Below are positions 7,464 to 51,962 of a stretch of DNA of 64,000 nucleotides, in pieces (positions within the stretch are counted from its first letter, which is position 1; every line of letters starts with the position of its first letter). The notes beneath the pieces were generated by a model. The model saw only the letters and a program-made list of their open reading frames with translations. It made no database searches and had not been told where the DNA came from. This DNA comes from Gemmatirosa kalamazoonensis (GTDB taxonomy: Bacteria; Gemmatimonadota; Gemmatimonadetes; Gemmatimonadales; Gemmatimonadaceae). A program made the position numbers and the translations under genes. The stretch spans positions 974,220 through 1,038,219 of the forward strand of contig NZ_CP007128.1 in the NCBI RefSeq assembly GCF_000522985.1, read 5' to 3'.

Positions 7464-8534
7464 GTGCGCGTCGCGTACGTCACGGCGGCGGTCCAGCCAT
7501 CGGTGGACGTCGCACCGCTCCCCTGGGTGTGGCACCACGATGCGCTCGCCGCGCGCGGGATCGACATCGTGCACGTCGACGCGGCGTCGCCGGACGCGTT
7601 CGGCCGCGCGTACGACGCGATGATCCTGCACGTGTGGCTCGACTGGAAGAACCCGCGCCGCTTCGTGCCGTCGCGGATCCTGCCGGTGATGGAGGCGTAC
7701 GCGGCGTACCGCGCGCGCTTCCCGGAGACCGTGCAGATCGTGCTGAACCACACCGACATGAGCCGGCGCCCGTACGCGACGCCGTACTGGCGTCCCGGCG
7801 ACCCGGTGCTGTACCGCACGCCGGCGTACGACCGCGCGGAGCTCGCGCCGTTCCCGGCCGAGTCGATCCACGCGTACGAGAAGGTGTGGGGCGCGCCGCG
7901 CTTCGTTGACGGCGCGCGACCGCGAGGAGGACTCGGCGTCCGGCGACGCGCGCGGGTCCTGCTCGGCAACCTTGGGACGGCGTCGGAGCTCGCGCGCGCC
8001 GCCGGCGCGGCGTTAGGCGGCCGCACGTACGCCGCGGGATTCGTCGGCCAGCCGACGGGGCCCCGGGGCTACCGCGAGCGGGTGGCGCGCGAGACGGCGC
8101 GCGTCGGCGTGGGGCTGTGCGTGCGCGGGCACTTCCTCGACGCGGCGTCGCACGACGCGCTCATGGCGCGGTGCCGCATCATCGTCTGTCCGCGCGGGTG
8201 GGGGGAGCAGAGCGCGCGGCACTGGGACGCGTGGCGCTCGGGCAAGCCGGTGCTCACCGATCGCGACTGCGACGCGGTGGAGATGATCCCCGGCTGCCGG
8301 CTGCGCGCGGGCGTGCACTACCTCGTGTACGACGACCCGCGCGACATCCCCGACCTCGTCACCGACTGGACGCGGCCGTCGCGGCGCGACGACCTCGACG
8401 CGATCGCCGCCGCGGGGCGGGCCGCGGCGGAGGACTACGATGCGCTGGGCCGCATCGAGCGCTTCCTGCGCGTCGTGGTGCCTAACGCCGCTCCCAGCGC
8501 GCGAAGAGCTGCTGGAACGCCGGGTCGTTCCTGA
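7464..8534 (+). CDS. Hypothetical protein, possible CgeB-like/GT1-like glycosyltransferase
   Basis: 356-aa ORF translationally coupled to the upstream gene (stop/start overlap). No confident motif. Lies within the EPS locus. Confidence 0.4.
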   Translation: MRVAYVTAAVQPSVDVAPLPWVWHHDALAARGIDIVHVDAASPDAFGRAYDAMILHVWLDWKNPRRFVPSRILPVMEAYAAYRARFPETVQIVLNHTDMSRRPYATPYWRPGDPVLYRTPAYDRAELAPFPAESIHAYEKVWGAPRFVDGARPRGGLGVRRRARVLLGNLGTASELARAAGAALGGRTYAAGFVGQPTGPRGYRERVARETARVGVGLCVRGHFLDAASHDALMARCRIIVCPRGWGEQSARHWDAWRSGKPVLTDRDCDAVEMIPGCRLRAGVHYLVYDDPRDIPDLVTDWTRPSRRDDLDAIAAAGRAAAEDYDALGRIERFLRVVVPNAAPSARRAAGTPGRS

Positions 8535-11169
8535 CGCCGGCGAGCATCGGCTCCGTGCGCAGCCACGCGACGGACGCCCACGACGGACGCGCGAGCGCGC
8601 TGTCGAAGTACACCGCCGACTTCCGGGCGTCGCCGAGCATGGCGTAGACGGTGCCGAAGTTCGAGAGCGGGCCGACGCCCTCGAGCGCGTCCTTGCTCGG
8701 CGGCTGGAGCTCCTCCCCGCGCGACGCCGCGCGCACCGCGGCATCGGCGTGCCCGAGCCCCGCCTCAGCGACGGCGAGCGACTGGTAGATCCACGACTGA
8801 TCCGGCTGATCGTCGCGCAGCCGCTCGAGGCGCACGCGCGCGGAGTCGAGCTGCACGCGCGCCGCGGGGAGACGCTGGAGCTGCCAGAGCATCGTCCCCT
8901 TCTCGAGGTGGTAGAGCGCGGTGTCCAGGCCGTACGCGCCCGGGCGGAGCTTCGCGAGGAACTCGTCCAGGTTCGGGTGGCGGATGACGCGCGTCAGCTC
9001 CACCATCGGCGGCCGCCAGGCGTTAGGCGGCACGCGCTCCTCAGCGGTGCGCAGGATGTCGCGCGCCGCGGCGACGTCGCCGCGCTCGTTCAGGACGAGC
9101 CGCATGCGCTGCGTGTACGCCTCGAGGAAATCGGGCGCCAGCGCCGTCGCGTGCTCGAGGTGCTTGCGCGCCTCCGCGTACTGACGGATGAACAGCAGCG
9201 TCTCGCCGAGGTTGAACCACGCGCGCGCCGAGTTCGGGTCGAGCTCCGCGGAGCGACGGTAGCTCTCGATCGCCTCGCGGAACTTCCCCTGCCGGCGGCT
9301 CACGTTCCCGAGCTGCAGGAACACCTCGGCGTCGCTCGGCTGGAGCTGGCCGGCGCGCGTGAACTCCTGGATCGCGCGCTCGTAGTCCTGCCGTCCCCAG
9401 TAGTAGTACAGGCCGAGCGCGATGTGCCCCTCGGCGAGGTTGGGGTCGAGCGCGAGCGCGCGGTCGGCGGCCTGCTTCGCCGCGAGCAGCCGCGCCTCGC
9501 CGGGGCCGATGCGCAGCCGGTGGATCCACGCGTGCGTGCGCGCGAGCTTCGCCTGCGCGAGCGCGAACGTGGGGTCGGTGTCGACCGCCTTCTGGTAGAA
9601 GTCGAGCGCCGAGAGCACGTCGGCGCGCGACCAGCTCCGGTTGTACGCCGCGTTGCCGCGCACGAGGTACTCGAACGCCTCGGCGCTGCGCGTCTGGCGC
9701 GAGGTGAGCCGCCGCTGCTCGTCGCCGACGAGCACGATGTCGAGCGCCTCGGCGACGTTCGCCGCGAGCTGCGAGTGGATCCGCGTCGCGCTCCCCGACG
9801 GCACGTCGAAGCTGAACGTCTTCACCAGCTCGTCGTCGGCGGCGCGCACGAGCCGCGCGCTCAGGTGCACGCTGTCGTTCGCGCCGAGCCACCGCACCGT
9901 CCCCTCGACGAGGTACCCGACGTCCAGCTCGCGCGCGATGTCGCGGTGCGAGAGCTGGCTGTCGCGGTACTTCTTCGTGCTGGAGTACGCGATCACGCGC
10001 AGCCCCGAGATCCCCGCCAGCTCGTCGGTGATCGCCTCCGCGGTGCCGTCGGCGAGCTGCGGGTCGGCGGTGGCCCCGTCGCCGCGGAACGGCAGCACGG
10101 CGATGCGCGGGCTCTCGCCGGCCGCGGGCGCGTCGTGCCGGAGCTGCCGCGCGGCAAGGAAGCCGGCGACGCCGAGCACCGCCGCGGCGACGACGGCGAG
10201 CACCGGCCGACGCCACGCGGGCGCCGGGCGCGCGGCGGACGCGGAAGGCGTATCGGTGGCGACGGGCAGCTGGAGCGGCGTGGCGTACGTCACGCCTCCC
10301 GCGACCCCGGCCCGCACCGCGTCGAGGAACGCCCCGATCGACGGGAAGCGATCGGCCGGCACCTTCGCGAGCGCGCGCTGGATCGCCTGGTCGACCCCCA
10401 TCGGCACGCCGGGGCGCAGGATGCACACCGACGGCACCGGCGCCTGGAAGTGGCGCGCCATGATCGCGTGCGGCGTCGGCCCCATGAACGGCGGCTCGCC
10501 GGCGAGCAGCTCGTAGAGCACGCACGCCAGGCTGTACTGGTCCGCCGCGCCGTCGATGCGCCGCGTCTCGCCCCACTGCTCGGGGCTCATGTACGCGCTG
10601 GTGCCGACGGCGAGCCCGGTCGCGGTGAGACGCGCCTCGTTGCTCTCGTCGACCGCGCGCGCGACGCCGAAGTCGCAGACGAGCGCGTGGCCGCGCGAGA
10701 TGAGGAGGTTCTCGGGCTTGATGTCGCGGTGGACGAGCCCCTGCTCGTGGGCATAGGCGAGCGCCTCCCCGGCCTCGACCACGAACCGGACCGCCTCCTC
10801 GAGCGGGAGCTGGCCGCGCCGGACGAGGAGCTGGCGGAGCGACTCCCCCTCGACGAACGGCATGACGTAGAACAGGCGGCCGTCGGCGTCCCCGGCGTCG
10901 TAGATGGGGACGATGTTCGGGTGGTTCAGCCGGCCGACGTGCTCGATCTCGCGCCGGAAGCGCTCGATGCCGGTGTCGAACGAGAGCTCCTGGCGCAGGA
11001 GCTTCACCGCGACGGTGCGTCCCTGCTCGCGGTCCTCGGCCAGGTACACGGTCGCCATCCCGCCACGACCGAGCTCGCGCTGCACGACGTAGCGCCCCTT
11101 CAGCGCCGCGCGGAGCGCGTCCCCCGAGTTCAGTAGGTCCGCAGCGGCCTGCGGATCGTTCTGCTCCAT
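8482..11169 (-). CDS. Serine/threonine protein kinase with C-terminal TPR repeats, TM-anchored
   Basis: Hanks kinase motifs: VAVKLL, HRDIKPENLL, DFGVA, SAYMSPEQ. A hydrophobic segment follows the kinase domain. The long C-terminus carries TPR-like repeats (YQKAV..DP...A...LA). Confidence 0.85.
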   Translation of the reverse strand: MEQNDPQAAADLLNSGDALRAALKGRYVVQRELGRGGMATVYLAEDREQGRTVAVKLLRQELSFDTGIERFRREIEHVGRLNHPNIVPIYDAGDADGRLFYVMPFVEGESLRQLLVRRGQLPLEEAVRFVVEAGEALAYAHEQGLVHRDIKPENLLISRGHALVCDFGVARAVDESNEARLTATGLAVGTSAYMSPEQWGETRRIDGAADQYSLACVLYELLAGEPPFMGPTPHAIMARHFQAPVPSVCILRPGVPMGVDQAIQRALAKVPADRFPSIGAFLDAVRAGVAGGVTYATPLQLPVATDTPSASAARPAPAWRRPVLAVVAAAVLGVAGFLAARQLRHDAPAAGESPRIAVLPFRGDGATADPQLADGTAEAITDELAGISGLRVIAYSSTKKYRDSQLSHRDIARELDVGYLVEGTVRWLGANDSVHLSARLVRAADDELVKTFSFDVPSGSATRIHSQLAANVAEALDIVLVGDEQRRLTSRQTRSAEAFEYLVRGNAAYNRSWSRADVLSALDFYQKAVDTDPTFALAQAKLARTHAWIHRLRIGPGEARLLAAKQAADRALALDPNLAEGHIALGLYYYWGRQDYERAIQEFTRAGQLQPSDAEVFLQLGNVSRRQGKFREAIESYRRSAELDPNSARAWFNLGETLLFIRQYAEARKHLEHATALAPDFLEAYTQRMRLVLNERGDVAAARDILRTAEERVPPNAWRPPMVELTRVIRHPNLDEFLAKLRPGAYGLDTALYHLEKGTMLWQLQRLPAARVQLDSARVRLERLRDDQPDQSWIYQSLAVAEAGLGHADAAVRAASRGEELQPPSKDALEGVGPLSNFGTVYAMLGDARKSAVYFDSALARPSWASVAWLRTEPMLAGVRNDPAFQQLFARWERR

Positions 11170-11290
11170 GCGCCTCCAGGCCGTACCACGTCTCGTTACG
11201 TGCTGAAGCTTACGGCGCCGTCATGATGCGGGCAAACTTCCGTCTCGGGCGGCGATTGCTCTCACCTGGCCCTCGTCACATCGTTGCGTC

Positions 11291-13933: not shown

Positions 13934-15037
13934 TCACACGACGGCCAGGATGTCGACCAGCGTGCGGTAGGATCTCGCGCCGAGGATCGCGTCGACGCGG
14001 CTCGCGTACGGACGCCGGACGGCCCGGCGTGCGCGGTCGATGAACGCGTCCGCCGTGTACGGCTCGACGAGCAGGTCGGGGTGGCAGAGCGGCCAGTTGC
14101 CGCTGTTGGGCGACGTCACGACGTTCGCGCCGAGCGCCGCGGCCTCGAACAGGATGCCGGGCGCCGCGTCCCACGCGGACGGGCCGACGACCACCCGCGC
14201 GCGTCCCATGAGGGCGAACAGCTCGCGCCGCGACGCGACGAGGCCGTGGGCGACCGCGCCGCCTAACGGATCGTCGAGCAGCCCGGCGACGTGCGACCGC
14301 AGCTCGGGGCAGCCGGCGACGATCGCGCGCACGAGCGGGAGGTTCTTCTCCGGGCGGTTCCACCGGCTGGCGACGAACAGCAGATCCACGTCGCGCTCGT
14401 CGAACGGGCGCGCGAGGTCCGCGTGGCGCGCGGCCTCGCCGTGGATCCACTCGGCCATCCACACGACGTCGGGGTACAGCTTCCCCGCGTGTGTCGGGTA
14501 GAAGCGGCGCAGCAGCTCGTGCACGAGCGGCGCGTGCGCGACGACGAGGTCCGCGCGCTCCACGGCCTCGCGCTCGAGCGCGTGGAAGAGCATGGGTCGC
14601 TCCGTCGTGCGGAGCGCGTCGAGCACCGCGGTCGCGTCGCCGTAGCGGGCGAGGTACGCGTCGATCTGGTCGCATCCCGCGGTCAGGAACACGAGCGGGG
14701 TGTCGGGCGCGGCGTGCTTCAGCACGAGCGCGGCGATGTAGCCGACGGCGAGGACCACGTCCGGCGCGACCGTGCGCACGAGCTCCGCGAGCCGCGGCTG
14801 CGGATCGTGGAAGCGCCGCGCGAGCACGTGGGTGTGGACGTCGGGGAGCGCGCGCGGGTTGCCATACGCGTCGCCGAACCGCTCGCGCAGGAACGGCTCG
14901 AGCGATCCGTCGACGAGGCTCACGTACGCGGCGCACGACGTCTCCGCGCGCAGCCGCTCGTACAGCGCGTACGTCGCGGTGCTCGCGCCGCCGTAGCCCG
15001 GCGGCTCGTAGCAGGCGACGAGGATCCGCCGGCTCAC
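13934..15037 (-). CDS. Glycosyltransferase (GT-B type)
   Basis: 367-aa segment VSRRILVACYEPPGYGGASTATYALYERL...FEAAALGANVVTSPNSGNWPLCHP. The GTG start overlaps the asnB stop (GTGA). The track's 1034-aa ORF 13934..17038 is a fusion artefact. Confidence 0.55.
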   Translation of the reverse strand: MSRRILVACYEPPGYGGASTATYALYERLRAETSCAAYVSLVDGSLEPFLRERFGDAYGNPRALPDVHTHVLARRFHDPQPRLAELVRTVAPDVVLAVGYIAALVLKHAAPDTPLVFLTAGCDQIDAYLARYGDATAVLDALRTTERPMLFHALEREAVERADLVVAHAPLVHELLRRFYPTHAGKLYPDVVWMAEWIHGEAARHADLARPFDERDVDLLFVASRWNRPEKNLPLVRAIVAGCPELRSHVAGLLDDPLGGAVAHGLVASRRELFALMGRARVVVGPSAWDAAPGILFEAAALGANVVTSPNSGNWPLCHPDLLVEPYTADAFIDRARRAVRRPYASRVDAILGARSYRTLVDILAVV

Positions 15038-16875
15038 GTCGTGGTCGGCCGTCCGTGGCGCTCCGCCCACAAGGCGAGGCTCAACAGCCGCCAGAACAGC
15101 CAGCCGTGACTCGCGGCGCCGCGCTGGTGCTCGCCGTGCATCGCGCGCAGCGCACGTCGGCCCAACGGCACCCCGCAGATCTCGGCGCGGCCGAGCACCG
15201 CGTCCTCGAACAGCGCGCGGAGCGGGCCGCGGAACCACGCGTCGATCGGCACGGTGAAGCCGCGCTTCGCCGTCGTCTGGTGCGGTACGTGGCGGGCGAG
15301 CGCGTGACGCAGCGGCCGCTTGCCGATGCCGCTCGACGCGTCGAGGCACGTCGCCCAGTCCACGCGCGACGCGACGTCGACGACCTCGCGGTCGAGCAGG
15401 GGCATGCGCACCTCCAGCGCGTGGTGCATGCTCGCGCGGTCCACCTTCATCAGGATGCGCGGCAGGTGCATGCGCACCTCGAGCCAGCGCATCCAGCGCG
15501 CGGTGCGCCCCTCGTCCCAGTCGTCGTAGTCGAACGCCGTGTAGTCGTCGGGAAGCGGCGGCAGCTCGGGGAGCGCCGCACGCAGCGTCCGACGCCTGAC
15601 GGATCCGTGGTGGGTGCAGTAGACGTCGCCGATCGTGCGATGCAGCAGCCCCCAGTCGTCGCGCGCCGACGCGACGTGCCGGACCGCTCGCAACAGGCGC
15701 GGCTCGCGGAAGTGGCGCGCGATCCGCAGCACGGACGCGGAGCGGTCGGCATATCCCCAGAACAGCTCGTCGCCGCCGTCGCCGGAGAGCATCACCGTCA
15801 CGCGCTCGCGGGCGAGCCGCGAGATTGCGAGCGTGGGCAGGATCGAGTAGTCCGCGAACGGCTCGGCGCACGCGTCGTGCGCCTCGGTCACGAGCGCGAG
15901 CACCTCGCCGTCGTCGATGCGCCGCACGGTGTGCGCGAGGCCGATCGCGCGCGCGTACGCCGCGGCGTCGGTCGACTCGTCGGTCGCCGGATCGCCGGTC
16001 GCGAGCGTGAACGCGGGGATCGACGTGCCGAGCGTCTCCCGCGCGAGCGCGGCGACGAGCGGCGAGTCGACACCGCCGGAGAGGAAGGTGCCTAACGGTA
16101 CGTCGCTCACGACGTGGCGGCGCACCGCCGCGGCGACCGCCGACTCCACCGCTTCGAGCGCGTCGTCGCCGCGCAGGTCGGGCTCGCGGTCGCGCGGGAA
16201 GTCGTGGAAGCGGCCGCGCTCCGTGCGTCCCGCGGCGTCGACGGCGAGCCACGCGCCCGGCTCGAGCATCGCGGCATCGTCGTGCACCGCGTACGGCGCC
16301 GGGATCTGGTCGAAGCGCAGGAACAGCCCGAGCGCGTCCCTGCGCAGCGCGCTCGCGCGGGCCCACGGGTGCGCGAGGATCTGGTCGTACTGCGACCCGA
16401 AGACGAGCCCCCGCGCGACGCGCAGGTAGTACAGCGGCTTCATGCCGACGTGGTCGCGGGCGAGCAGCAGCCGGCGCGATGCCGAATCGTAGAACGCGAG
16501 CGCGAACATCCCGTCGAACCGCCGCAGCGCGTCGGGGCCCCACCGGATCAGCGCGTGCAGCGCGACCTCGGCGTCGCCGGTGGAGCGGAAGCAGACGCCG
16601 TCGCGCCGCAGCTCCGCACGCAGCTCGCGGAAGTTGTAGATCTCGCCGTTGCACACGAGCGCGAAGCGGCCGCTCGGGTCGAGCATCGGCTGGTGCCCCG
16701 CCGGCGTGAGGTCGAGCACCGCGAGGCGGCGGAAGCCGAGGAGGCACGCGTCGTCGCCCCACGCACCGACGTCGTCCGGGCCGCGGCGCGCGACGAGCGC
16801 GATCGATCGGTCGATCGTCGCGCGCCACCGCGCGGCGTCGGCCTCGAACGACAGCAGCCCGGCGATGCCGCACAT
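15034..16875 (-). CDS. asnB: Asparagine synthase (glutamine-hydrolysing)
   Basis: Start placed at MCGIAGLL (N-terminal nucleophile Cys2). PP-loop LSGGVDSPLVAAL. C-terminal synthetase domain. Track ORF 15034..16995. Confidence 0.8.
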   Translation of the reverse strand: MCGIAGLLSFEADAARWRATIDRSIALVARRGPDDVGAWGDDACLLGFRRLAVLDLTPAGHQPMLDPSGRFALVCNGEIYNFRELRAELRRDGVCFRSTGDAEVALHALIRWGPDALRRFDGMFALAFYDSASRRLLLARDHVGMKPLYYLRVARGLVFGSQYDQILAHPWARASALRRDALGLFLRFDQIPAPYAVHDDAAMLEPGAWLAVDAAGRTERGRFHDFPRDREPDLRGDDALEAVESAVAAAVRRHVVSDVPLGTFLSGGVDSPLVAALARETLGTSIPAFTLATGDPATDESTDAAAYARAIGLAHTVRRIDDGEVLALVTEAHDACAEPFADYSILPTLAISRLARERVTVMLSGDGGDELFWGYADRSASVLRIARHFREPRLLRAVRHVASARDDWGLLHRTIGDVYCTHHGSVRRRTLRAALPELPPLPDDYTAFDYDDWDEGRTARWMRWLEVRMHLPRILMKVDRASMHHALEVRMPLLDREVVDVASRVDWATCLDASSGIGKRPLRHALARHVPHQTTAKRGFTVPIDAWFRGPLRALFEDAVLGRAEICGVPLGRRALRAMHGEHQRGAASHGWLFWRLLSLALWAERHGRPTTT

Positions 16876-16927: not shown

Positions 16928-17938
16928 ATGGCTACTATAGACGCAGTGTCGCGCCCCGTCCAACCCCAGCGCGCCGTCGAGGCGCTGCGCGACACGGTGC
17001 TCGCGACCGTCGGGCCGCTGCTCGGCTCCGCGCCCCACGCGCTCGTCGACTTCCCGAACTACCCGAACGTCGGCGACTCGGCGATCTACCTCGGCCAGCT
17101 CGCGTGCCTGCGCGCGTTAGGCGTGGGGGCTCCCGCGTACGTGTGCGACCTCGCGACGTACGACCGCGCGGCGCTCGCCCGCCGCGTGGGCGGCGGCACC
17201 ATCCTCCTCGCCGGCGGCGGCAACTTCGGCGACCTGTGGCCGTCGGTGCAGGCGGTGCGCGAGGACGTGATCCGGTCGTTCCCCGCGAACCGCGTCGTGC
17301 AGCTCCCGCAGACGATCCACTTCCGCGACCCCGCCGCGCTGCGCCGCGCGCGCGACGTCGTGCGCGCGCACCCCGCGCTCACGTTGCTCGTGCGCGACGC
17401 GCCGAGCCTGGAGATCGCGCGGCGCGAGCTCGGCGCCGACGCGAGGCTGTGCCCGGACATGGCGTTCTGCCTCGGCTCCCTGCGTCGGCCGCGTGCGCCG
17501 GACCACGACGTCGTGCGCCTCGCGCGCACCGACGCCGAGGCGGCGACGGCGCCTAACGACGCGGGCGTGCCGACGGTGGACTGGATGGACGAGCCGGAGA
17601 CCGCGCTGCGGCGGCTGAACTGGCGGCTCACCGCCGCGGTGCGCAAGCGGCGGCCGGGCGCGGCGATGCTCGCGCGGACGACCTACGGCCCGCTCGCGCG
17701 CCAGCGGCTGCGGCGCGGCCTGCGCATGCTCGCCGCCGGCCGCGCGGTCATTACCGACCGGCTGCACGGCCACATCCTCGCCCTGCTGCTCGGCATCCCG
17801 CACGTGCTGCTCGACGACGCGCACGGCAAGCTCGCCGGCTTCCACGCCGCGTGGACGCACGACGTCGTCGGGGTGCGGCACGCCACGTCGCTCGCCGAGG
17901 CGGTGGCGGCCGCGCGCGATCTGGCCCGGGATGGCTGA
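16928..17938 (+). CDS. Polysaccharide pyruvyl transferase family protein (CsaB/WcaK-like)
   Basis: Start at MATIDAVSRP, chosen to avoid overlap with the divergent asnB. ...GNFGDLW...ITDRLHGHILALLLGIPHVLLD... is typical of PS_pyruv_trans. Confidence 0.6.
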   Translation: MATIDAVSRPVQPQRAVEALRDTVLATVGPLLGSAPHALVDFPNYPNVGDSAIYLGQLACLRALGVGAPAYVCDLATYDRAALARRVGGGTILLAGGGNFGDLWPSVQAVREDVIRSFPANRVVQLPQTIHFRDPAALRRARDVVRAHPALTLLVRDAPSLEIARRELGADARLCPDMAFCLGSLRRPRAPDHDVVRLARTDAEAATAPNDAGVPTVDWMDEPETALRRLNWRLTAAVRKRRPGAAMLARTTYGPLARQRLRRGLRMLAAGRAVITDRLHGHILALLLGIPHVLLDDAHGKLAGFHAAWTHDVVGVRHATSLAEAVAAARDLARDG

Positions 17939-18764
17939 CGCGATCACCTATCTCGTCGCGAACCACAACCAGGCGCGCTACGTGGGCGACTGCCTCGCGT
18001 CGCTGCGCGGCCAGACCGACGACCGGTGGCGCGCCGTGGTGCTCGACGACGGGAGCACCGACGACTCGGTCGACGTCATCGCGCGATGCCTCGACGATCG
18101 AGTGTTGCTCGTGCGCCACACCACGAACCGGGGATACATCGCCGCGCTGCGCCGGCTGATCGACGAGGCGCCGACCGACGTCGTCGCGATCGTGGACGCC
18201 GACGACGCGCTCACGCCCGACGCGACCGCGCGGCTGCTCGACGCATGGGCCGCGCACCCGGACGCGGCGCTCGTGTACTCGCGGTTCGCCGCGTGCGACG
18301 AGACGCTGACGCGCACGCACGCGGTCCACGGATCGGCGCTGCCGCCGGGGGGCTGGTCGCTCTGGCACGCGACGGTGGGCCACGTCCTCAGCTTCCGCCG
18401 CACCGCGTATCGACGGACCGCGGGGCTCGACGACGCGATGCTGTACGCCGAGGACCGGGACCTCGTCTACAAGCTGGAGGAGCTCGCGCCGCCGGTGTTC
18501 GTGGACGCGGTGCTGTACCGCTACCGCGAGGTGCCGGGGTCGCAGAGCCGCGACCCGGCGAAGCGGCGCATCGGCGCGGCGAACGCGCGGCGCGCCCGGC
18601 TCGCGGCGCTCGCACGGCGCGGCGTGGGCGGACGGCGCCGGCTGCTCTGGACCACCGCGTTCCTCGCCGACTACGTCGCGGCCACGTCGCCGCGCGCGCG
18701 CGTGCGCGCCGCCGCGACGCGTGTGCTGCACGCGCTCGGGCGATGGCTCGCACCGGATCGCTGA
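17931..18764 (+). CDS. Glycosyltransferase family 2
   Basis: YLVANHNQARYVGDCLASLRGQT...VVLDDGSTDDS...IVDADDAL. Confidence 0.75.
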   Translation: MADAITYLVANHNQARYVGDCLASLRGQTDDRWRAVVLDDGSTDDSVDVIARCLDDRVLLVRHTTNRGYIAALRRLIDEAPTDVVAIVDADDALTPDATARLLDAWAAHPDAALVYSRFAACDETLTRTHAVHGSALPPGGWSLWHATVGHVLSFRRTAYRRTAGLDDAMLYAEDRDLVYKLEELAPPVFVDAVLYRYREVPGSQSRDPAKRRIGAANARRARLAALARRGVGGRRRLLWTTAFLADYVAATSPRARVRAAATRVLHALGRWLAPDR

Positions 18765-20650
18765 TTGCGGCGATCGCGCGTCGCACCGACATTCGGAGCA
18801 CCTCCCTCCCTCTCACGGCGCGCACGCAGCGCTCGCCCATCGCGTCCTTCCTCCTCGTCTCGGATCCCGACCCCGCGCGCCGCGACGCGTTCCTCGCGCG
18901 CGCCGCGACGTCGCTCGCGCCCGTGCCCGGCCTGCGCGGCGGCCGCGTCGACGTCGGGTGCGCGACGATCGTGTGGCGCGCCGCGGCGTCGGCGCCGGTG
19001 AGCGTGTGGCGGGCCGCGGTCGAGGGAGGCGCCGGCGCGGCGGGCGTGGTGTGGGGCGACGCGTTAGGCGACGGCGACCGCGGACGCGCCTCGGCGTCCG
19101 ACGTCGCGCGCGCGTGGACCGGGCCGGGCGCGCACAACGCAGCGTTCGACGGCTTTCACGCCGCGGCGGTGGTGCGCGGCGAGGAGATCGTCGTCGGTGC
19201 GGACCTGCTCGGGCTCTTCCCCGTGTACCACGCATCGGCCGGCGAGGTGCGGCTCGTCGGCTCGTCGCCGGAGCCGTTCCGCGCGCATCCGTCGTTCCGC
19301 GACGCGCTCGACGCCGACGCGCTGCTCGGCCACCTGCTCACGGGCGGGCCGTTCGACGGACGCGCGCTGCTCGCCGGCGTGCGTCGACTCTCGCCGGGCG
19401 CGCTGCTCCGCTGGCGGGCGCGCGCGGCGCCGCGCGAGACGCGGCAGTACGCGCTACCCGAGTACGACGCGACCGAGACGGCGCCGTTCGCCGACCAGGT
19501 GGAGCGGTTCGACGCGGCGCTGGCGGAGGCAGTACGGCGGCACACCGCGCCGCACCCGCGCGTCGCGGTGCTGCTCTCCGGCGGACGCGACTCGCGCATG
19601 CTCGCCGGCTACCTCGCCGAGCGGCGGTCACCCGTCGGCGCGGTGACGCTCGGCGCGCCGGGGGACAACGAGGCGCGGTGCGCGGCGGGCGCGGCGCGCG
19701 CGTTAGGCATCCCGCACCACGTGCACGCGGCGCCGTTCGACGCGTACCCGCGATGGGCCGAGCGCAGCGCGCGGTGGGAGCAGCTCGGCGGCGGCATGAG
19801 CAGCATGCACACGTGGGGGACGCTCGACGCGCTCGCCCCACTCGGCGACGATGCGGCGCTCATGTCGGGGTACCTGTTCGACATCCGCCACCTCGGCGCG
19901 CGTCCGCCGGAGCGCGACGCCATGCTCGCGTGGGCCGCGGCGCGCGCCGTCGCTCCCGACCGGCTGCGTGCGCTGCTGCGCGACGATGCGGCGCGCGCCC
20001 GCGTGGCCGACGTGACGCACGCGATCGCGCGCGACTACGACGCGACGACCACCGACCCCAGCGAGCGCTCGTGGCGGTGGTTCGTGCGCGCGTACTGCCG
20101 CTTCCACGCGGGGAGCGTTCCGTGGCGGATGTCGTTCGGCGCGTGGCCGGTGCTCCCCGTGCTCGATCGCGCGCTGTTCGCGACGACGCTCGCGCTGCCA
20201 CGCGCGTCGCTCGCCGAGCGCAGGCTGCAGGACGCGCTGTTCCGGCGGCGGTTCCCGCAGCTCGCGCGGCTCCCGTTCGACCACAACGCGCACGACGTGC
20301 AGCCGCTGACGCCGTCGTTAGGCTGGCGGGTGCGCGCGGCGCTCGGTCGGCTGCGCCCCGCGTCCACCCACCGCGCGGGTTGGGCGCGCGAGCGACGGTA
20401 CTACGTGCGCGTGTACGACTTCGACAATCCCGGCTGGCGCGCGGTGCGCGAGGCCGCCGAGCCGGCGCGCCCGCTGCTCGCCGAGTGGTTCGACCCCGCG
20501 GCGCTGGCCGAGCTGGTGCCGCCGCCGGCGCGCGACGCGTCGCACCGCGATCCGATCAGGGACGGATTCGGGCCGAAGCTGCTCGTCGGCTTCATGCTCT
20601 GGCGTGCGCTGCGCGACGCCGGGGTGCAGGGAGACCCCGCGTGCGGCTGA
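18743..20650 (+). CDS. Asparagine synthase-family amidotransferase-like protein; no N-terminal Cys nucleophile seen
   Basis: Start at MARTGSLIAAIARR (internal Met of track ORF 18026..20650). PP-loop VAVLLSGGRDSRMLAGYL. Overlaps the upstream GT2 by about 22 nt. Confidence 0.6.
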   Translation: MARTGSLIAAIARRTDIRSTSLPLTARTQRSPIASFLLVSDPDPARRDAFLARAATSLAPVPGLRGGRVDVGCATIVWRAAASAPVSVWRAAVEGGAGAAGVVWGDALGDGDRGRASASDVARAWTGPGAHNAAFDGFHAAAVVRGEEIVVGADLLGLFPVYHASAGEVRLVGSSPEPFRAHPSFRDALDADALLGHLLTGGPFDGRALLAGVRRLSPGALLRWRARAAPRETRQYALPEYDATETAPFADQVERFDAALAEAVRRHTAPHPRVAVLLSGGRDSRMLAGYLAERRSPVGAVTLGAPGDNEARCAAGAARALGIPHHVHAAPFDAYPRWAERSARWEQLGGGMSSMHTWGTLDALAPLGDDAALMSGYLFDIRHLGARPPERDAMLAWAAARAVAPDRLRALLRDDAARARVADVTHAIARDYDATTTDPSERSWRWFVRAYCRFHAGSVPWRMSFGAWPVLPVLDRALFATTLALPRASLAERRLQDALFRRRFPQLARLPFDHNAHDVQPLTPSLGWRVRAALGRLRPASTHRAGWARERRYYVRVYDFDNPGWRAVREAAEPARPLLAEWFDPAALAELVPPPARDASHRDPIRDGFGPKLLVGFMLWRALRDAGVQGDPACG

Positions 20651-21839
20651 CGCGGCCGACCGTCGAGCGTCGCGGCGACGTCGTGCGATTCGAGACGCGG
20701 GTGACGTGGGAGGACCGGCAGCGCGACGACGACGTGATCGCGCACGAGTGGCCCGCGGCGCTCGCCGACGACGTCACCGCGTCGCCCGACGCGGCGCTGC
20801 TCGCGGCGTACCCGCTCGCGCTGTGGTTCGGCGAGCGCCGGCTCGCGGTCGAGGGGGACGTCTGCCCGCGGCTCGCCGACGGCGTGCGCACCGCGATGGC
20901 GCTCGGGCACGAATGGTACCCGCAGCTCCGCCCCGTCGCGATCGAGGCGACGGAGCGCACGCCGCCGGTGCCTAACGCATCGCGCGGCGAGCGACGTGCC
21001 GCGGTGTGCCTCTCCGGCGGCGTCGATGCGCTGACGCTGCTGTACCTGAACACACGCACCGTGCCGGCGGGCCACCCCGCGCGGTTCACCGACGGGCTAT
21101 TCCTGTTCGGCCTCAACACGTACGACTACGCGGACGGCGTGGCGCGGCCGGAGCGACTCGCGGCGTACGAGGTGCAGCGCGCGCGCGTCTCGCCGCGCTG
21201 TGCGAGGCGACCGGCGTCACGCTGGTCACGGCGGCGACGAACGTGCGGCCGCTGTTCCCGACGTACGAGGCGTGGTGCCACGCGACGCACTCGGCGCCGC
21301 TCGCGTCGGTGGGGCACGCGATGACGCCGCGCCTCCGATCGCTTGCCGTCGCGAGCGCGGGAGCGGGGCTCGCGCCGGCCGTGGTGCCCAACGCGCTCGT
21401 CGACGCCTTCCACGCGTCGCACGCGCTGGACGTGCACTCGGCGCACGCGACGCTGCCGCGGCTTGAGAAGGTGCGCCTGCTCGCGGGGTGGCCCGAGGGG
21501 CTCGCGGCGCTGCGCTGCTGCTTCATGATCCGCGTCCCCGACGGACCGGTCCAGAACTGCGGGCAGTGCGAGAAGTGCGTGCGCACGATGCTCGAGTTCC
21601 TCGCCGTCGGCGCACTGGACCGCGCACCGTTCCCGACGCGCGACGTCACGCCGGAGGCGGTGGAGCGCGTGGCCTACGCGGACTCGCTCGCGACGCGCAT
21701 CTTCTTCGCCGAGGTGACGCCGTCGCTCGCGGCGCAGGGACGCGATGACCTGGTACGGGTCATTCGCCGCGCGCTCGCGCACCAGGAGATGCGGCTGCGG
21801 CGGCGAGAGCCCTGGTGGCGACGGCTCGTGCGTGAATGA
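20641..21839 (+). pseudogene. PP-loop superfamily protein (QueC / N-acetyl-sugar amidotransferase-like), disrupted by a -1 frameshift at a (CG)5 tract around 21177-21186
   Basis: The first frame (in phase with the 18721 ORF) reads VRLTRPTVERRGDVVRFE...WYPQLRPV...AAVCLSGGVDALTLLY...AAYEVQRARV. The second frame (track ORF 21006..21839) continues LAALCEATGVTLVTAATNV...NCGQCEKCVRTMLEFLAVGALD. It is a paralog of the intact gene at 21924..23129. Confidence 0.5.
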
Positions 21840-21917
21840 ACCGCAGAGGACCCAGAGGACGCAGAGGAAACCAACAAAAGTGGTTCTCCTCTGCGTCCTC
21901 TGCGTCCTCTGCGGTTC
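21838..21917. repeat. Family-A hairpin (GAACCGCAGAGGAC... / ...GTCCTCTGCGGTTC)
   Basis: Sits exactly between the convergent stop codons of the two PP-loop paralogs (21839 and 21924). Confidence 0.75.
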
Positions 21918-21923
21918 AAGCTC

Positions 21924-23129
21924 TTACACGATCCACCCGCGCAGCAGCCGCCGCTCGCGGGCCTTGCCCAACCGCCAGAGCAGCGGCACGTGGCCGATGC
22001 GCTTCCAGCGCGCCAGTCCGCGCGTGAGCTTCTCCGAGTCGCGCAGCGAGCGATCCATCGCCGCCTCGATGTCGGGGCGGCCGCACCGGCGGGCGAGGTC
22101 GCGCACGTAGCCGAACTGGCGCACGTCGAAGTCGCGCCGGCAGTAGATGCGTCCCGCCTGGTCGAGGTCGAGCCACGCGCGGTCGAACGTCGCGCACGCG
22201 TCGAGCGCGCCCAACGCCTCGAGCGCGAGCATCGTGCGGTAGCAGCCGTTGCACCGGCCGCAGTTGTCGCCCGTCGGCGACTGATAGCACACGCGCAGGT
22301 GGCGCAGCGCGATCGGCGAGCGCGCGACGTACTCCGTCTTCTCCACGCGCATGAACGCCGGGCCGTCGTGCACCACGCGCACGCGCGACGACGTGAACAG
22401 CGGGTCGGTGAGCGGGTGCGAGCCCCAGAAGCGGAGATCGCGGTACCCGGCCGAGGATCCGATGAGCACTGTGCCGTAGCGCGCGCCGAGCGCGTGCGCG
22501 ACGCCGGCGAGCGCCGCGCCGTGCGAGAGCTTTGACCAGTCGGTCGCCGCGAAGCGTGTCTCGCGCAGGTTCGTCGCCGCGAGCACGAGGTGCTTGCCCA
22601 TCGCGTCCGCCGCGCGCTCGAGCGACGCGGCCGCGCGCGCGAACCCCGCATCGTTCGCGAGCGGGATGTCGAAGCCGTGCACGAACACCAGATCGTCGAT
22701 CCGCACCGACGTCGGCGTGCCGTCGCCCGCCGCGTGCCGCAACGCGGTGAAGAACGAGTCGACGCCGCCGGTGAAGAACGACGCGGTGCGCGGCGCGCCC
22801 GGTGCACACGGACGCGGCGGCGCATCGAGCGCGACGTCGCCGAGCTGCGGGTACCACGAGCGCCAGACGCGCAGCACCTCGCGCACGTTGTCGAGCAGCG
22901 CGCGGTCGGTCTCGGCGTCGAGCCGCAGCGGCTCGCCGCGCACCGCGGCGAGCGGCGCGAGCCAGGCGAGGAACGGATCGCCGGCGGTCGCGAGCGCCGC
23001 GGCGTGGGCGTCGGGCACCTCCAGCCACAGCTCCTCGGCGTCGCCGCCGGCGTGGCGCACCTCGGCCGACAGACGCGTCCAGCCGCGCCGCCGCGGAGAC
23101 GCGCGCAGCGCCGGACGCGACAGCTCCAT
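21924..23129 (-). CDS. PP-loop superfamily protein (intact paralog of 20641..21839)
   Basis: Start at MELSRPALRA. ...WYPQLGDV...ASFFTGGVDSFFTAL...CYQSPTGDNCGRCNGCYRTMLALEALGALD. Track ORF 21924..24038 is a fusion with the upstream GT2. Confidence 0.6.
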   Translation of the reverse strand: MELSRPALRASPRRRGWTRLSAEVRHAGGDAEELWLEVPDAHAAALATAGDPFLAWLAPLAAVRGEPLRLDAETDRALLDNVREVLRVWRSWYPQLGDVALDAPPRPCAPGAPRTASFFTGGVDSFFTALRHAAGDGTPTSVRIDDLVFVHGFDIPLANDAGFARAAASLERAADAMGKHLVLAATNLRETRFAATDWSKLSHGAALAGVAHALGARYGTVLIGSSAGYRDLRFWGSHPLTDPLFTSSRVRVVHDGPAFMRVEKTEYVARSPIALRHLRVCYQSPTGDNCGRCNGCYRTMLALEALGALDACATFDRAWLDLDQAGRIYCRRDFDVRQFGYVRDLARRCGRPDIEAAMDRSLRDSEKLTRGLARWKRIGHVPLLWRLGKARERRLLRGWIV

Positions 23130-23131
23130 GC

Positions 23132-24160
23132 CTAACGCCCCCGCGCCGCGACGTGCGCGACGCAGCCGACGGTCGCCGCGAGCGCGTTGCCCGCGAAGTA
23201 CACGATGCGCATGGGGACCGTGCGCAGCGCGAACCACCATCCCCGCTCGCGCAGGAACCATCGGTACAGCGCCGCGTCCGAGACCACGATCGCGCCGAGC
23301 GCCGCGGCGCTGCCGGTGAGCCAGCGCGCGTCGCGCGTGGCGACGGCGAGCAGCGACGTCGCCGCCGCCGCGGCGCAGAGCGCGGTGAGCGCCTTCTCCG
23401 TCATCGCGACGTTCAACGGCCCGCGGGCGAGCGCGCGGCGCCGCTCGAGGAGCAGCCGCATCCACGGGATGCCGCGGTCGCGCACGTCGGTGACGAGCAT
23501 GCCGCGGAACGTCCAGCGCTTGAGGTGCGTGCCCTGCACGTCGGGGCGCAGCTCGAGCCGGTAGCCGCGGTCGTGCAGTCGGTAGCCGAGCTCGATGTCC
23601 TCGATCTGCGGCCGAGGGTAGCGCCGCGCATCGAAGCCGCCGACGTCGAGGAACGCCGATCGCCTGACGGCACCGCAGCCCGTCCAGAACGTCTCCGCCG
23701 CGCCGCCGTGCGTCGCGTGCACCCAGTGGTGCAGCAGGTTGCGGTACTGCGACACGAACCCCCGGTCCGCGGGCGTCGTGTCGTACGCGCCCGACACCGC
23801 CGCGACGTCCGGCGCGCGCGTCAGGATCTCGTGGAAGCGGCGGAGCGTGGCCCGATGCACGCACACGTCGGCGTCGACGAAGACGACGATGTCGGCGCGA
23901 CACGCCGCGACGGCACGGTTGCGCGCCGCCGCCGGCCCGACCGAGCGTCCGGTCGTGCACAGCACGACGTCCGCGTAGCGCGCCGCGATCCGCGCCGTGT
24001 CGTCGGTGCTGCCGTCGTCGACGACGACGAGCTCCCACCGCGCGCGCGGCAGGTCGTTCGCCGCGAGCGCCGCGAGGCAGCGGCCCAGCGTCGTGCCGGC
24101 GTCGCGCGCGGGGACGACGACGGAGAGCAGGGGCAGCGACATCGACGAGCGCTCCGTCAC
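23132..24160 (-). CDS. Glycosyltransferase family 2 with C-terminal TM segments
   Basis: LSVVVPARDAGTTLGRCLAALAAN...VVVDDGSTDDT...FVDADV. Stop TAG lies inside a cgTTAGGCATG junction with the downstream start. Confidence 0.75.
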   Translation of the reverse strand: MTERSSMSLPLLSVVVPARDAGTTLGRCLAALAANDLPRARWELVVVDDGSTDDTARIAARYADVVLCTTGRSVGPAAARNRAVAACRADIVVFVDADVCVHRATLRRFHEILTRAPDVAAVSGAYDTTPADRGFVSQYRNLLHHWVHATHGGAAETFWTGCGAVRRSAFLDVGGFDARRYPRPQIEDIELGYRLHDRGYRLELRPDVQGTHLKRWTFRGMLVTDVRDRGIPWMRLLLERRRALARGPLNVAMTEKALTALCAAAAATSLLAVATRDARWLTGSAAALGAIVVSDAALYRWFLRERGWWFALRTVPMRIVYFAGNALAATVGCVAHVAARGR

Positions 24161-47322: not shown

Positions 47323-47342
47323 CAGCGTGGACTCTTCTTTTG

Positions 47343-47427
47343 GACCGCAGAGGACGCAGGGGATCGCAGAGGAACGCCCACGACGATGTGTCGGTTTCCT
47401 CTGCGTCCTCTGCGTCCTCTGCGGTTC
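47343..47427. repeat. Family-A hairpin
   Basis: GGACCGCAGAGGACGCAGGGGATCGCAGAGGA ... TCCTCTGCGTCCTCTGCGTCCTCTGCGGTTC, between the ddl start and the CBS stop. Confidence 0.7.
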
Positions 47428-47442
47428 ATGCTTTTCGGATGG

Positions 47443-51878: not shown

Positions 51879-51962
51879 GAACCGCAGAGGCACGCAGAGG
51901 GCCGCAGAGGAAACCGACAGCGATTGGTTCTCCTCTGCGGCCCTCTGCGTCCTCTGCGGTTC
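51879..51962. repeat. Family-A hairpin
   Basis: GAACCGCAGAGGCACGCAGAGGGCCGCAGAGGA ... TCCTCTGCGGCCCTCTGCGTCCTCTGCGGTTC. Confidence 0.75.

Follow-up and report, generated by a model that had tools for sequence, protein, structure and literature searches.

QueC catalyses the ATP-dependent adenylation of a carboxylate, followed by the formation of an amide and then a nitrile (PMC13376578). In both QueC and QatC, a four-cysteine zinc site follows the nucleotide-binding core (PMC13376578). Another group of PP-loop enzymes, the N-acetyl-sugar amidotransferases of the WbuX/PseA type, install amidino or amide groups. Here, a 64,000-nucleotide (nt) stretch of the Gemmatirosa kalamazoonensis KBS708 chromosome (72.8% G+C), referred to as the window, was found to carry two convergent, paralogous genes whose products resemble QueC in their predicted fold. 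The plus-strand copy is interrupted by a change of reading frame at an alternating CG tract. Most likely, this frameshift reflects an error in the sequencing consensus or a mutation of very recent date, and not a genetic switch. The two proteins belong to a large uncharacterised family of ~400-amino-acid (aa) proteins and, within the PP-loop superfamily, are new representatives of its QueC-like branch.

The plus-strand gene starts with GTG at 20641 and shares 10 nt with the end of the AsnB-like gene before it, including the TGA stop of that gene. Its codon starts are ≡1 mod 3 until the CG run and ≡0 mod 3 from there to the stop at 21839, and the frame changes exactly at the alternating tract GCGCGCGCGCG, which is (GC)5G at 21177..21187. 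A seven-state hidden Markov model (HMM) based on G+C by codon position placed the switch at 21189/21190, 2 nt past the end of the tract and in agreement with the site named in the original prediction. The stop of the first frame lies 135 nt beyond this compositional switch. Frameshift candidates were defined across the whole 64 kb as coding segments with an in-frame stop more than 60 nt beyond the compositional switch and with the next segment on the same strand; the plus-strand gene was the only one.

The N-terminal part of the split gene (20641..21187, plus strand) encodes an N-terminal alpha/beta domain, the PP-loop SGGVDA, beta2 and half of the next helix. The C-terminal part (21188..21839, plus strand, frame +2/-1) encodes beta3-beta5, the cysteine motif C..NCGQCEKCVRT and the C-terminal helices. 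In GenBank, the gene appears as J421_0875 (20641..21324, plus strand), a protein of 227 aa that includes a 45-aa out-of-frame tail, and J421_0876 (21321..21839, plus strand), a protein of 172 aa that is the only annotated piece of the C-terminal part. The intact paralog, J421_0877 (21924..23129, minus strand), has 401 aa, a QueC-like PP-loop fold in the model, the PP-loop TGGVDS and the motif C281-x8-C290-x2-C293-x2-C296. The paralogy of the two convergent genes, claimed earlier from the letters, was borne out by BLASTP, in which the joined plus-strand protein and the minus-strand protein share 35% identity over 278 aa (E=2e-25) in an alignment that crosses the junction. The alignment of an intact plus-strand ortholog with the minus-strand protein is likewise uninterrupted at this position. 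The joined frames thus give a product that is homologous along its full length. The motifs named in the original prediction were largely as described: WYPQL and NCGxCxxCxRTML..GALD are present in both copies, but the PP-loop of the minus-strand copy reads TGGVDS and not SGGVDS.

A search of 5.8 billion protein clusters returned an intact 408-aa protein (P0001) with 97% identity to the plus-strand product, together with ~90 more distant full-length homologs. Two metagenome contigs, L001 (JGI; the source of P0001) and L085 (ENA), are 97% identical to the window and contain the plus-strand gene intact, at 408 aa, with (GC)4G; L085 also carries the convergent paralog. Both contigs read CAGCGCGCGCGTCTC where the window has CAGCGCGCGCGCGTCTC. 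By this comparison, the KBS708 record is longer by exactly one CG unit (+2 nt), which is equivalent to the '-1' frame change described earlier. Deletion of the extra unit restores ...AAYEVQRARLAALCEATG..., a 398-aa gene that is colinear with every homolog. With 99.7% identity between them, L001 and L085 represent a single independent lineage. Over the comparable 4 kb, the CG gain is the sole indel in conserved coding sequence, and the other indels fall within a hairpin element between the paralogs. In the KBS708 record, then, the tract has grown from (GC)4G to (GC)5G by a single CG unit, a change that is derived and not programmed.

The age of the lesion was judged from the ratio of nonsynonymous to synonymous substitution rates (dN/dS) between the window and L085. 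For the plus-strand gene the ratio is 0.17 overall, 0.19 upstream of the shift and 0.16 downstream of it; the corresponding values are 0.09 for the minus-strand paralog and 0.27 for the AsnB-like gene. In addition, the third-position G+C signal of the plus-strand gene continues undiminished in the new frame. These low and equal ratios, along with the continuing codon signal, indicate purifying selection for essentially the whole divergence. The lesion is either very recent or not real. A metagenome scan for further near-identical alleles gave just the already known JGI contig, and the repaired 398-aa protein had no exact match in a 15-billion-protein collection. In the Logan run SRR29904083, two contigs (2138 and 2348 bp) encode proteins identical to J421_0877 and to the family-2 glycosyltransferase of 17931-18764, which indicates that the same or a nearly identical strain was sequenced independently; these contigs do not span the CG tract.

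The original prediction had left four readings of the frameshift: a phase-variable switch, a programmed frameshift, a fresh pseudogene and a sequencing error. The last two were retained, and the first two found no support. We put the probability that the frameshift is a sequencing-consensus artefact at about 0.5. On this reading, the single most likely one, the extra CG would be a mistake at a dinucleotide repeat that the consensus step left uncorrected, and the organism would carry an intact 398-aa gene. The KBS708 record is a PacBio-RS-only assembly from 2013. Errors in repeat copy number were the commonest failure of Quiver convergence, and a dedicated step, 'refine dinucleotide repeats', was later added to the software for this reason. 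HGAP and Quiver were used to assemble KBS708 from PacBio RS reads alone, at 118x coverage and with no second technology (PMC3974934). A useful calibration is provided by Streptomyces albus SM254, a genome of 73% G+C that was assembled with HGAP3 and Quiver at 262x (PMC4832174). In that genome, 205 indels still had to be corrected by Illumina reads, while 16 pseudogenes were confirmed (PMC4832174). For an assembly of this kind, an apparent frameshift is thus more likely a priori to be an artefact, although the type of change seen here is atypical.

Several points weigh against an artefact. Slippage by one unit is a classical real mutation, and exopolysaccharide genes are often lost during culture. 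The HMM gave no other frameshift candidate in the 64 kb, and G/C homopolymers of 6 nt or longer number just 11 in the window. 'Nearly all' of the residual indels in S. albus SM254 affected one base of a G or C homopolymer (PMC4832174), and the coverage of KBS708, at 118x, is itself an argument for a correct consensus (PMC3974934).

It is nearly as likely that the frameshift is a genuine, very recent slipped-strand gain of CG in KBS708, acquired perhaps during isolation or cultivation and leaving a null allele with no regulatory meaning. The change amounts to exactly one repeat unit inside the repeat, and in this it differs from the single-base homopolymer type typical of PacBio consensus errors (PMC4832174). 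It is, moreover, the sole candidate in 64 kb of a 118x assembly, and the equal dN/dS on both sides of the shift shows no decay so far, as expected of a recent event if it is real. Against a real mutation stand the ~13:1 excess of apparent indels over real pseudogenes in the comparable high-GC PacBio assembly (PMC4832174), the fact that the KBS708 record was never checked with a second technology (PMC3974934) and the intactness of the remainder of the conserved module.

A much less probable reading treats the CG run as a contingency locus, in which reversible gain and loss of units would toggle an exopolysaccharide-modifying enzyme ON and OFF by phase variation. Indeed, a change of one repeat unit does toggle the frame, two alleles (4 and 5 units) occur among three near-identical sequences, and the gene lies within a surface-polysaccharide locus. 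However, the tract has merely 4-5 units and lies in mid-gene in ordinary Q-R-A-R codons. In the window, 21 tracts of alternating CG reach 10 nt or more, including one within the intact paralog at 22632-22641, and neither this one nor any other tract in the window is out of frame. The tract 11-mer is depleted, with 11 occurrences in the window compared with 27 expected from dinucleotide-preserving shuffles. The CG run had been called a classic slipped-strand site; the shift is indeed one unit at this run, but the tract itself is statistically unremarkable. In 80 of 85 loci the homologous site has no CG run of 6 nt or more, and only the 97% relatives have one of 9 nt. As a separate matter, the scarcity of the 11-mer would fit selection, in a genome of 73% G+C, against runs that are prone to slippage or to forming Z-DNA.

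Production of a full-length protein by programmed recoding, either by ribosomal -1/+2 frameshifting or by transcriptional slippage on the CG run, is more improbable still. To judge by the letters, a +2 shift within the (CG)n run would re-pair tRNA-Arg with an identical CGC codon, and the coding signature is kept in both halves of the gene. Set against this, every ortholog, whether at 97% or as low as 30% identity, is a single open reading frame; the orthologs come from ~80 loci in Gemmatimonadota, Desulfobacterota, Acidobacteriota, cyanobacteria and other groups. No X XXY YYZ heptamer occurs in the zero frame between 21100 and 21324, and we know of no recoding signal that uses CG dinucleotides. 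The short, common and unconserved tract, the single-frame orthologs and the missing heptamer are the reasons for the low probability given to both phase variation and recoding. An old, decaying pseudogene, made redundant by the paralog next door, was rejected as equally improbable, since the dN/dS of 0.17, equal across the shift, shows the plus-strand gene to be under purifying selection, the lesion is a single one, and each paralog subfamily is conserved in its own right, with both found together in at least eight Gemmatimonadota loci.

The models show where the frameshift cuts the protein. The break lies in the PP-loop core, within the helix that follows beta2 and precedes beta3 (residues 170-190 of P0001), so that neither fragment could fold into an active enzyme.

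The gap between the two convergent stops is filled entirely by an 84-nt hairpin of the perfect type (21840..21923), and the original prediction was right to place a repeat-family hairpin between the genes. The sequence folds as one hairpin of -72 kcal/mol (z = -11.6). Copies of the element occur in the window at 937-1020, 21840-21923, 47341-47428 and 51900-51960, with folding energies of -72 to -80 kcal/mol. Each arm contains three 9-nt GCAGAGGAC repeats, and the ends read GAACCGC...GCGGTTC. The element evolves, or is exchanged, much more rapidly than the genes beside it. An Rfam scan of 20000-24000 found no matching family, the only matches to the hairpin being microRNA precursors below threshold. 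The repeat had no match in PLSDB, a collection that does not include the KBS708 megaplasmids (CP007129, CP007130 and their NZ_ versions). In L085, an equally stable hairpin with another repeat unit (GCGGAGAC) occupies the same intergenic position (2547-2637). The plus-strand open reading frame of the 97% relative runs into the hairpin arm, giving 408 aa compared with 398 aa.

Sequence models did not assign either paralog to a described family. Both paralogs and the intact ortholog had no match to any Pfam or NCBIfam family. The QueC model PF06508 gave E=0.3 (11 bits compared with a cut-off of 22), over the cysteine motif only, and neither paralog matched TIGR00364 or the Asn_synthase model PF00733; TIGR03573 (WbuX) gave no match at E<=1. 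The families suggested in the original prediction were therefore not confirmed, apart from a likeness to QueC at the level of the fold. Assignment of the paralogs to WbuX or AsnB was rejected on the same absence of TIGR03573 and Asn_synthase matches. A profile search of PDB sequences returned chance matches alone (E>=0.009), and a PADLOC scan of both paralogs and the intact ortholog gave no match. Literature searches on DUF6395 and on QueC-like proteins in polysaccharide loci returned nothing relevant, and DUF6395 was not mentioned in what they returned.

AlphaFold2 models, built on 48-49 homologs, had mean predicted local distance difference test (pLDDT) scores of 92.6 for J421_0877 and 91.7 for P0001. 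The models of both paralog types have a Rossmann-like alpha/beta core with a five-stranded parallel sheet. To this core each protein adds, in the models, an N-terminal alpha/beta domain of ~110 residues and a C-terminal helical domain of ~90 residues. With Foldseek, the sole credible PDB match was B. subtilis QueC (3bl5; probability 0.99), while the Legionella N-acetyl-sugar amidotransferase and AsnB scored just 6-7. The modelled structures thus show both paralogs to have a QueC/Cap9-type PP-loop ATP-pyrophosphatase fold with a four-cysteine motif of the zinc type, and the PP-loop-type nucleotide-binding fold proposed earlier is upheld by these models.

The invariant residues include the GGxD of the PP-loop, the four cysteines (C...NCGxCxxCxRT) and N, R and T. 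The G, G and D of the PP-loop are invariant in the 48-49 aligned homologs, and the variants differ at the first or last serine, as in SGGVDA of the plus-strand copy and TGGVDS of the minus-strand copy. The subfamily patterns are SGG[VI]D[AS] and [TS]GGVDS. Of 120 minus-subfamily proteins, 115 space the four cysteines as C-x8-C-x2-C-x2-C, whereas in the plus subfamily the first interval is x9-x12. When 1.84 billion representatives were searched with a profile, 9,681 clusters (50% identity) were found at E<=1e-3 and 4,501 at E<=1e-30.

The paralogs are part of a conserved set of four genes, which recurs in eight loci from metagenome-assembled genomes of Gemmatimonadota and in one cyanobacterial locus. 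In this set, an AsnB-like gene is followed directly by a paralog of the plus type, and a pyruvyl transferase and a paralog of the minus type complete the group. The two paralog subfamilies in these loci have ~55% and ~66% identity to the window copies. Since they are separately conserved and co-occur, the subfamilies are considered ancient and non-redundant.

In the window, the AsnB-like PP-loop protein J421_0874 (18743..20650, plus strand) has 635 aa and matches Asn_synthase in part (E=2.5e-10), below the TIGR cut-offs. It has the SGGRDS PP-loop part; no glutaminase domain was detected in it, and it has no N-terminal cysteine. The end of its gene, with the stop, overlaps the beginning of the split gene (GTGCGGCTGA), as it does in L085. 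Such conservation suggests translational coupling of the two PP-loop proteins. Conservation of neighbourhood also links the paralog pair to the polysaccharide pyruvyl transferase (PF04230; 16970..17938, plus strand), which elsewhere is fused to the family.

Fusions of family members to other domains were also found. Three proteins (P0091, P0283 and P0362) are fused to polysaccharide pyruvyl transferase, one (P0264) to a sulfotransferase and one (P0347) to a GNAT/FemAB-type acyltransferase. All of these fusion partners are glycan- or cell-wall-tailoring domains. Tandem arrays of two to four divergent paralogs occur in several phyla, with four copies in L013 (Okeania) and three each in L017, L048 and L027. 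Sets of several paralogs may be a general property of the system.

From these associations and from analogy of fold, the family would most likely adenylate the carboxylate of a glycan substituent, either a pyruvate ketal or a uronate, for amidation or a related substitution. The specific chemistry is tentative and, by itself, rather unlikely. We would similarly treat as doubtful the wider proposal that the family represents a new class of glycan-tailoring enzymes acting with pyruvyl transferases and, in Gemmatimonadota, with an AsnB-like partner, in which QueC-type adenylation would turn the carboxylate of a sugar or pyruvate ketal into an amide or even a nitrile and the paralogs would be non-redundant partners. 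Beyond Gemmatimonadota and the one cyanobacterium, the family is found in unrelated contexts, which weighs against the proposed function, and the gene is often single. In the Desulfobacterota-type contig L087 (9097-11125), where the setting departs from the polysaccharide module, a RimK-type ATP-grasp ligase and a 666-aa protein with no Pfam match immediately precede a family member.

The surroundings of the paralogs confirm the earlier view that the locus is a polysaccharide cluster with a true AsnB and an AsnB-like gene. This exopolysaccharide cluster contains glycosyltransferases of families 4 and 2 (GT4 and GT2), AsnB, the pyruvyl transferase, the AsnB-like protein and a flavin adenine dinucleotide (FAD) oxidoreductase. 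The glutamine-hydrolysing asparagine synthase B (15034..16875, minus strand) starts with MCG and contains GATase_7 and Asn_synthase domains (E=2.6e-71 for the latter). A glutaminase domain was found in this AsnB only, so the earlier count of up to four amidotransferase-like enzymes was overstated; the amidated sugars proposed on that basis are putative. One family-2 glycosyltransferase (17931..18764, plus strand) belongs to the same operon-like run on the plus strand as the split gene, and another (23132..24160, minus strand) lies directly upstream of the minus-strand paralog. Scans for consensus promoters and terminators gave no matches. A 912-aa Ser/Thr protein kinase with tetratricopeptide repeats (8482-11220, minus strand) borders the glycosyltransferase cluster and may be a regulator of the exopolysaccharide locus.

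In this type-strain genome, J421_0875 and J421_0876 are the halves of one gene and should be annotated as frameshifted, or corrected after resequencing. The frameshift itself is ordinary, and the family is of more general interest. A widespread QueC/Cap9-like PP-loop family has escaped annotation, and its link to pyruvyl transferases is seen both in a conserved neighbourhood and in at least three independent fusions. If the family does modify acidic groups of exopolysaccharides, a new tailoring reaction would be added to glycan biosynthesis in abundant soil phyla.

Compared with known systems, the CG tract resembles the contingency loci of Neisseria, Haemophilus and Campylobacter in that a change of repeat units alters the frame of an open reading frame for a surface structure. 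It differs from them in being short, not over-represented and not conserved. Among protein families, DUF6395 (PF19932) is reached by orthologs of the minus-strand copy (51-54% identity) with 25-29 bits, at a cut-off of 25. These matches (P0168, P0187 and P0190) lie over the C-terminal cysteine-motif and helical region. The DUF6395 model spans only the C-terminal third, however, and the window's own proteins give no match to it at E<=1.

The WbuX/PseA-type amidotransferases (TIGR03573; PDB 8WEX) are similar to the window paralogs in being PP-loop enzymes encoded in surface-polysaccharide loci, but the paralogs are separated from them by the lack of any TIGR03573 match at the threshold given above. 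Cap9 and QatC are QueC-like proteins of the type IV CBASS and QatABCD anti-phage systems, respectively; QatC likewise combines a conserved core with variable N- and C-terminal regions and a zinc-type cysteine motif (PMC13376578). In contrast to these, the window paralogs are without a PADLOC match and have no CD-NTase, QatA, QatB or QatD-type neighbours, and their context is polysaccharide biosynthesis. A QueC homolog of a defence system was rejected on the grounds of PADLOC and context.

QueC itself (PF06508/TIGR00364; PDB 3BL5) remains the closest comparison. The window family is not part of QueC at the sequence level, and its N-terminal and C-terminal domains (~110 and ~90 aa) are extra. 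No que genes lie near the paralogs: the neighbours within ~10 kb are GT2 and GT4 glycosyltransferases, the pyruvyl transferase, AsnB and the FAD oxidoreductase, with no queD, queE, queF or deazapurine genes among them. What the two have in common is the Rossmann-like PP-loop core and, C-terminal to it, a four-cysteine motif that is a putative zinc site in the window family. The function proposed for the family follows from taking the chemistry of QueC as its template.

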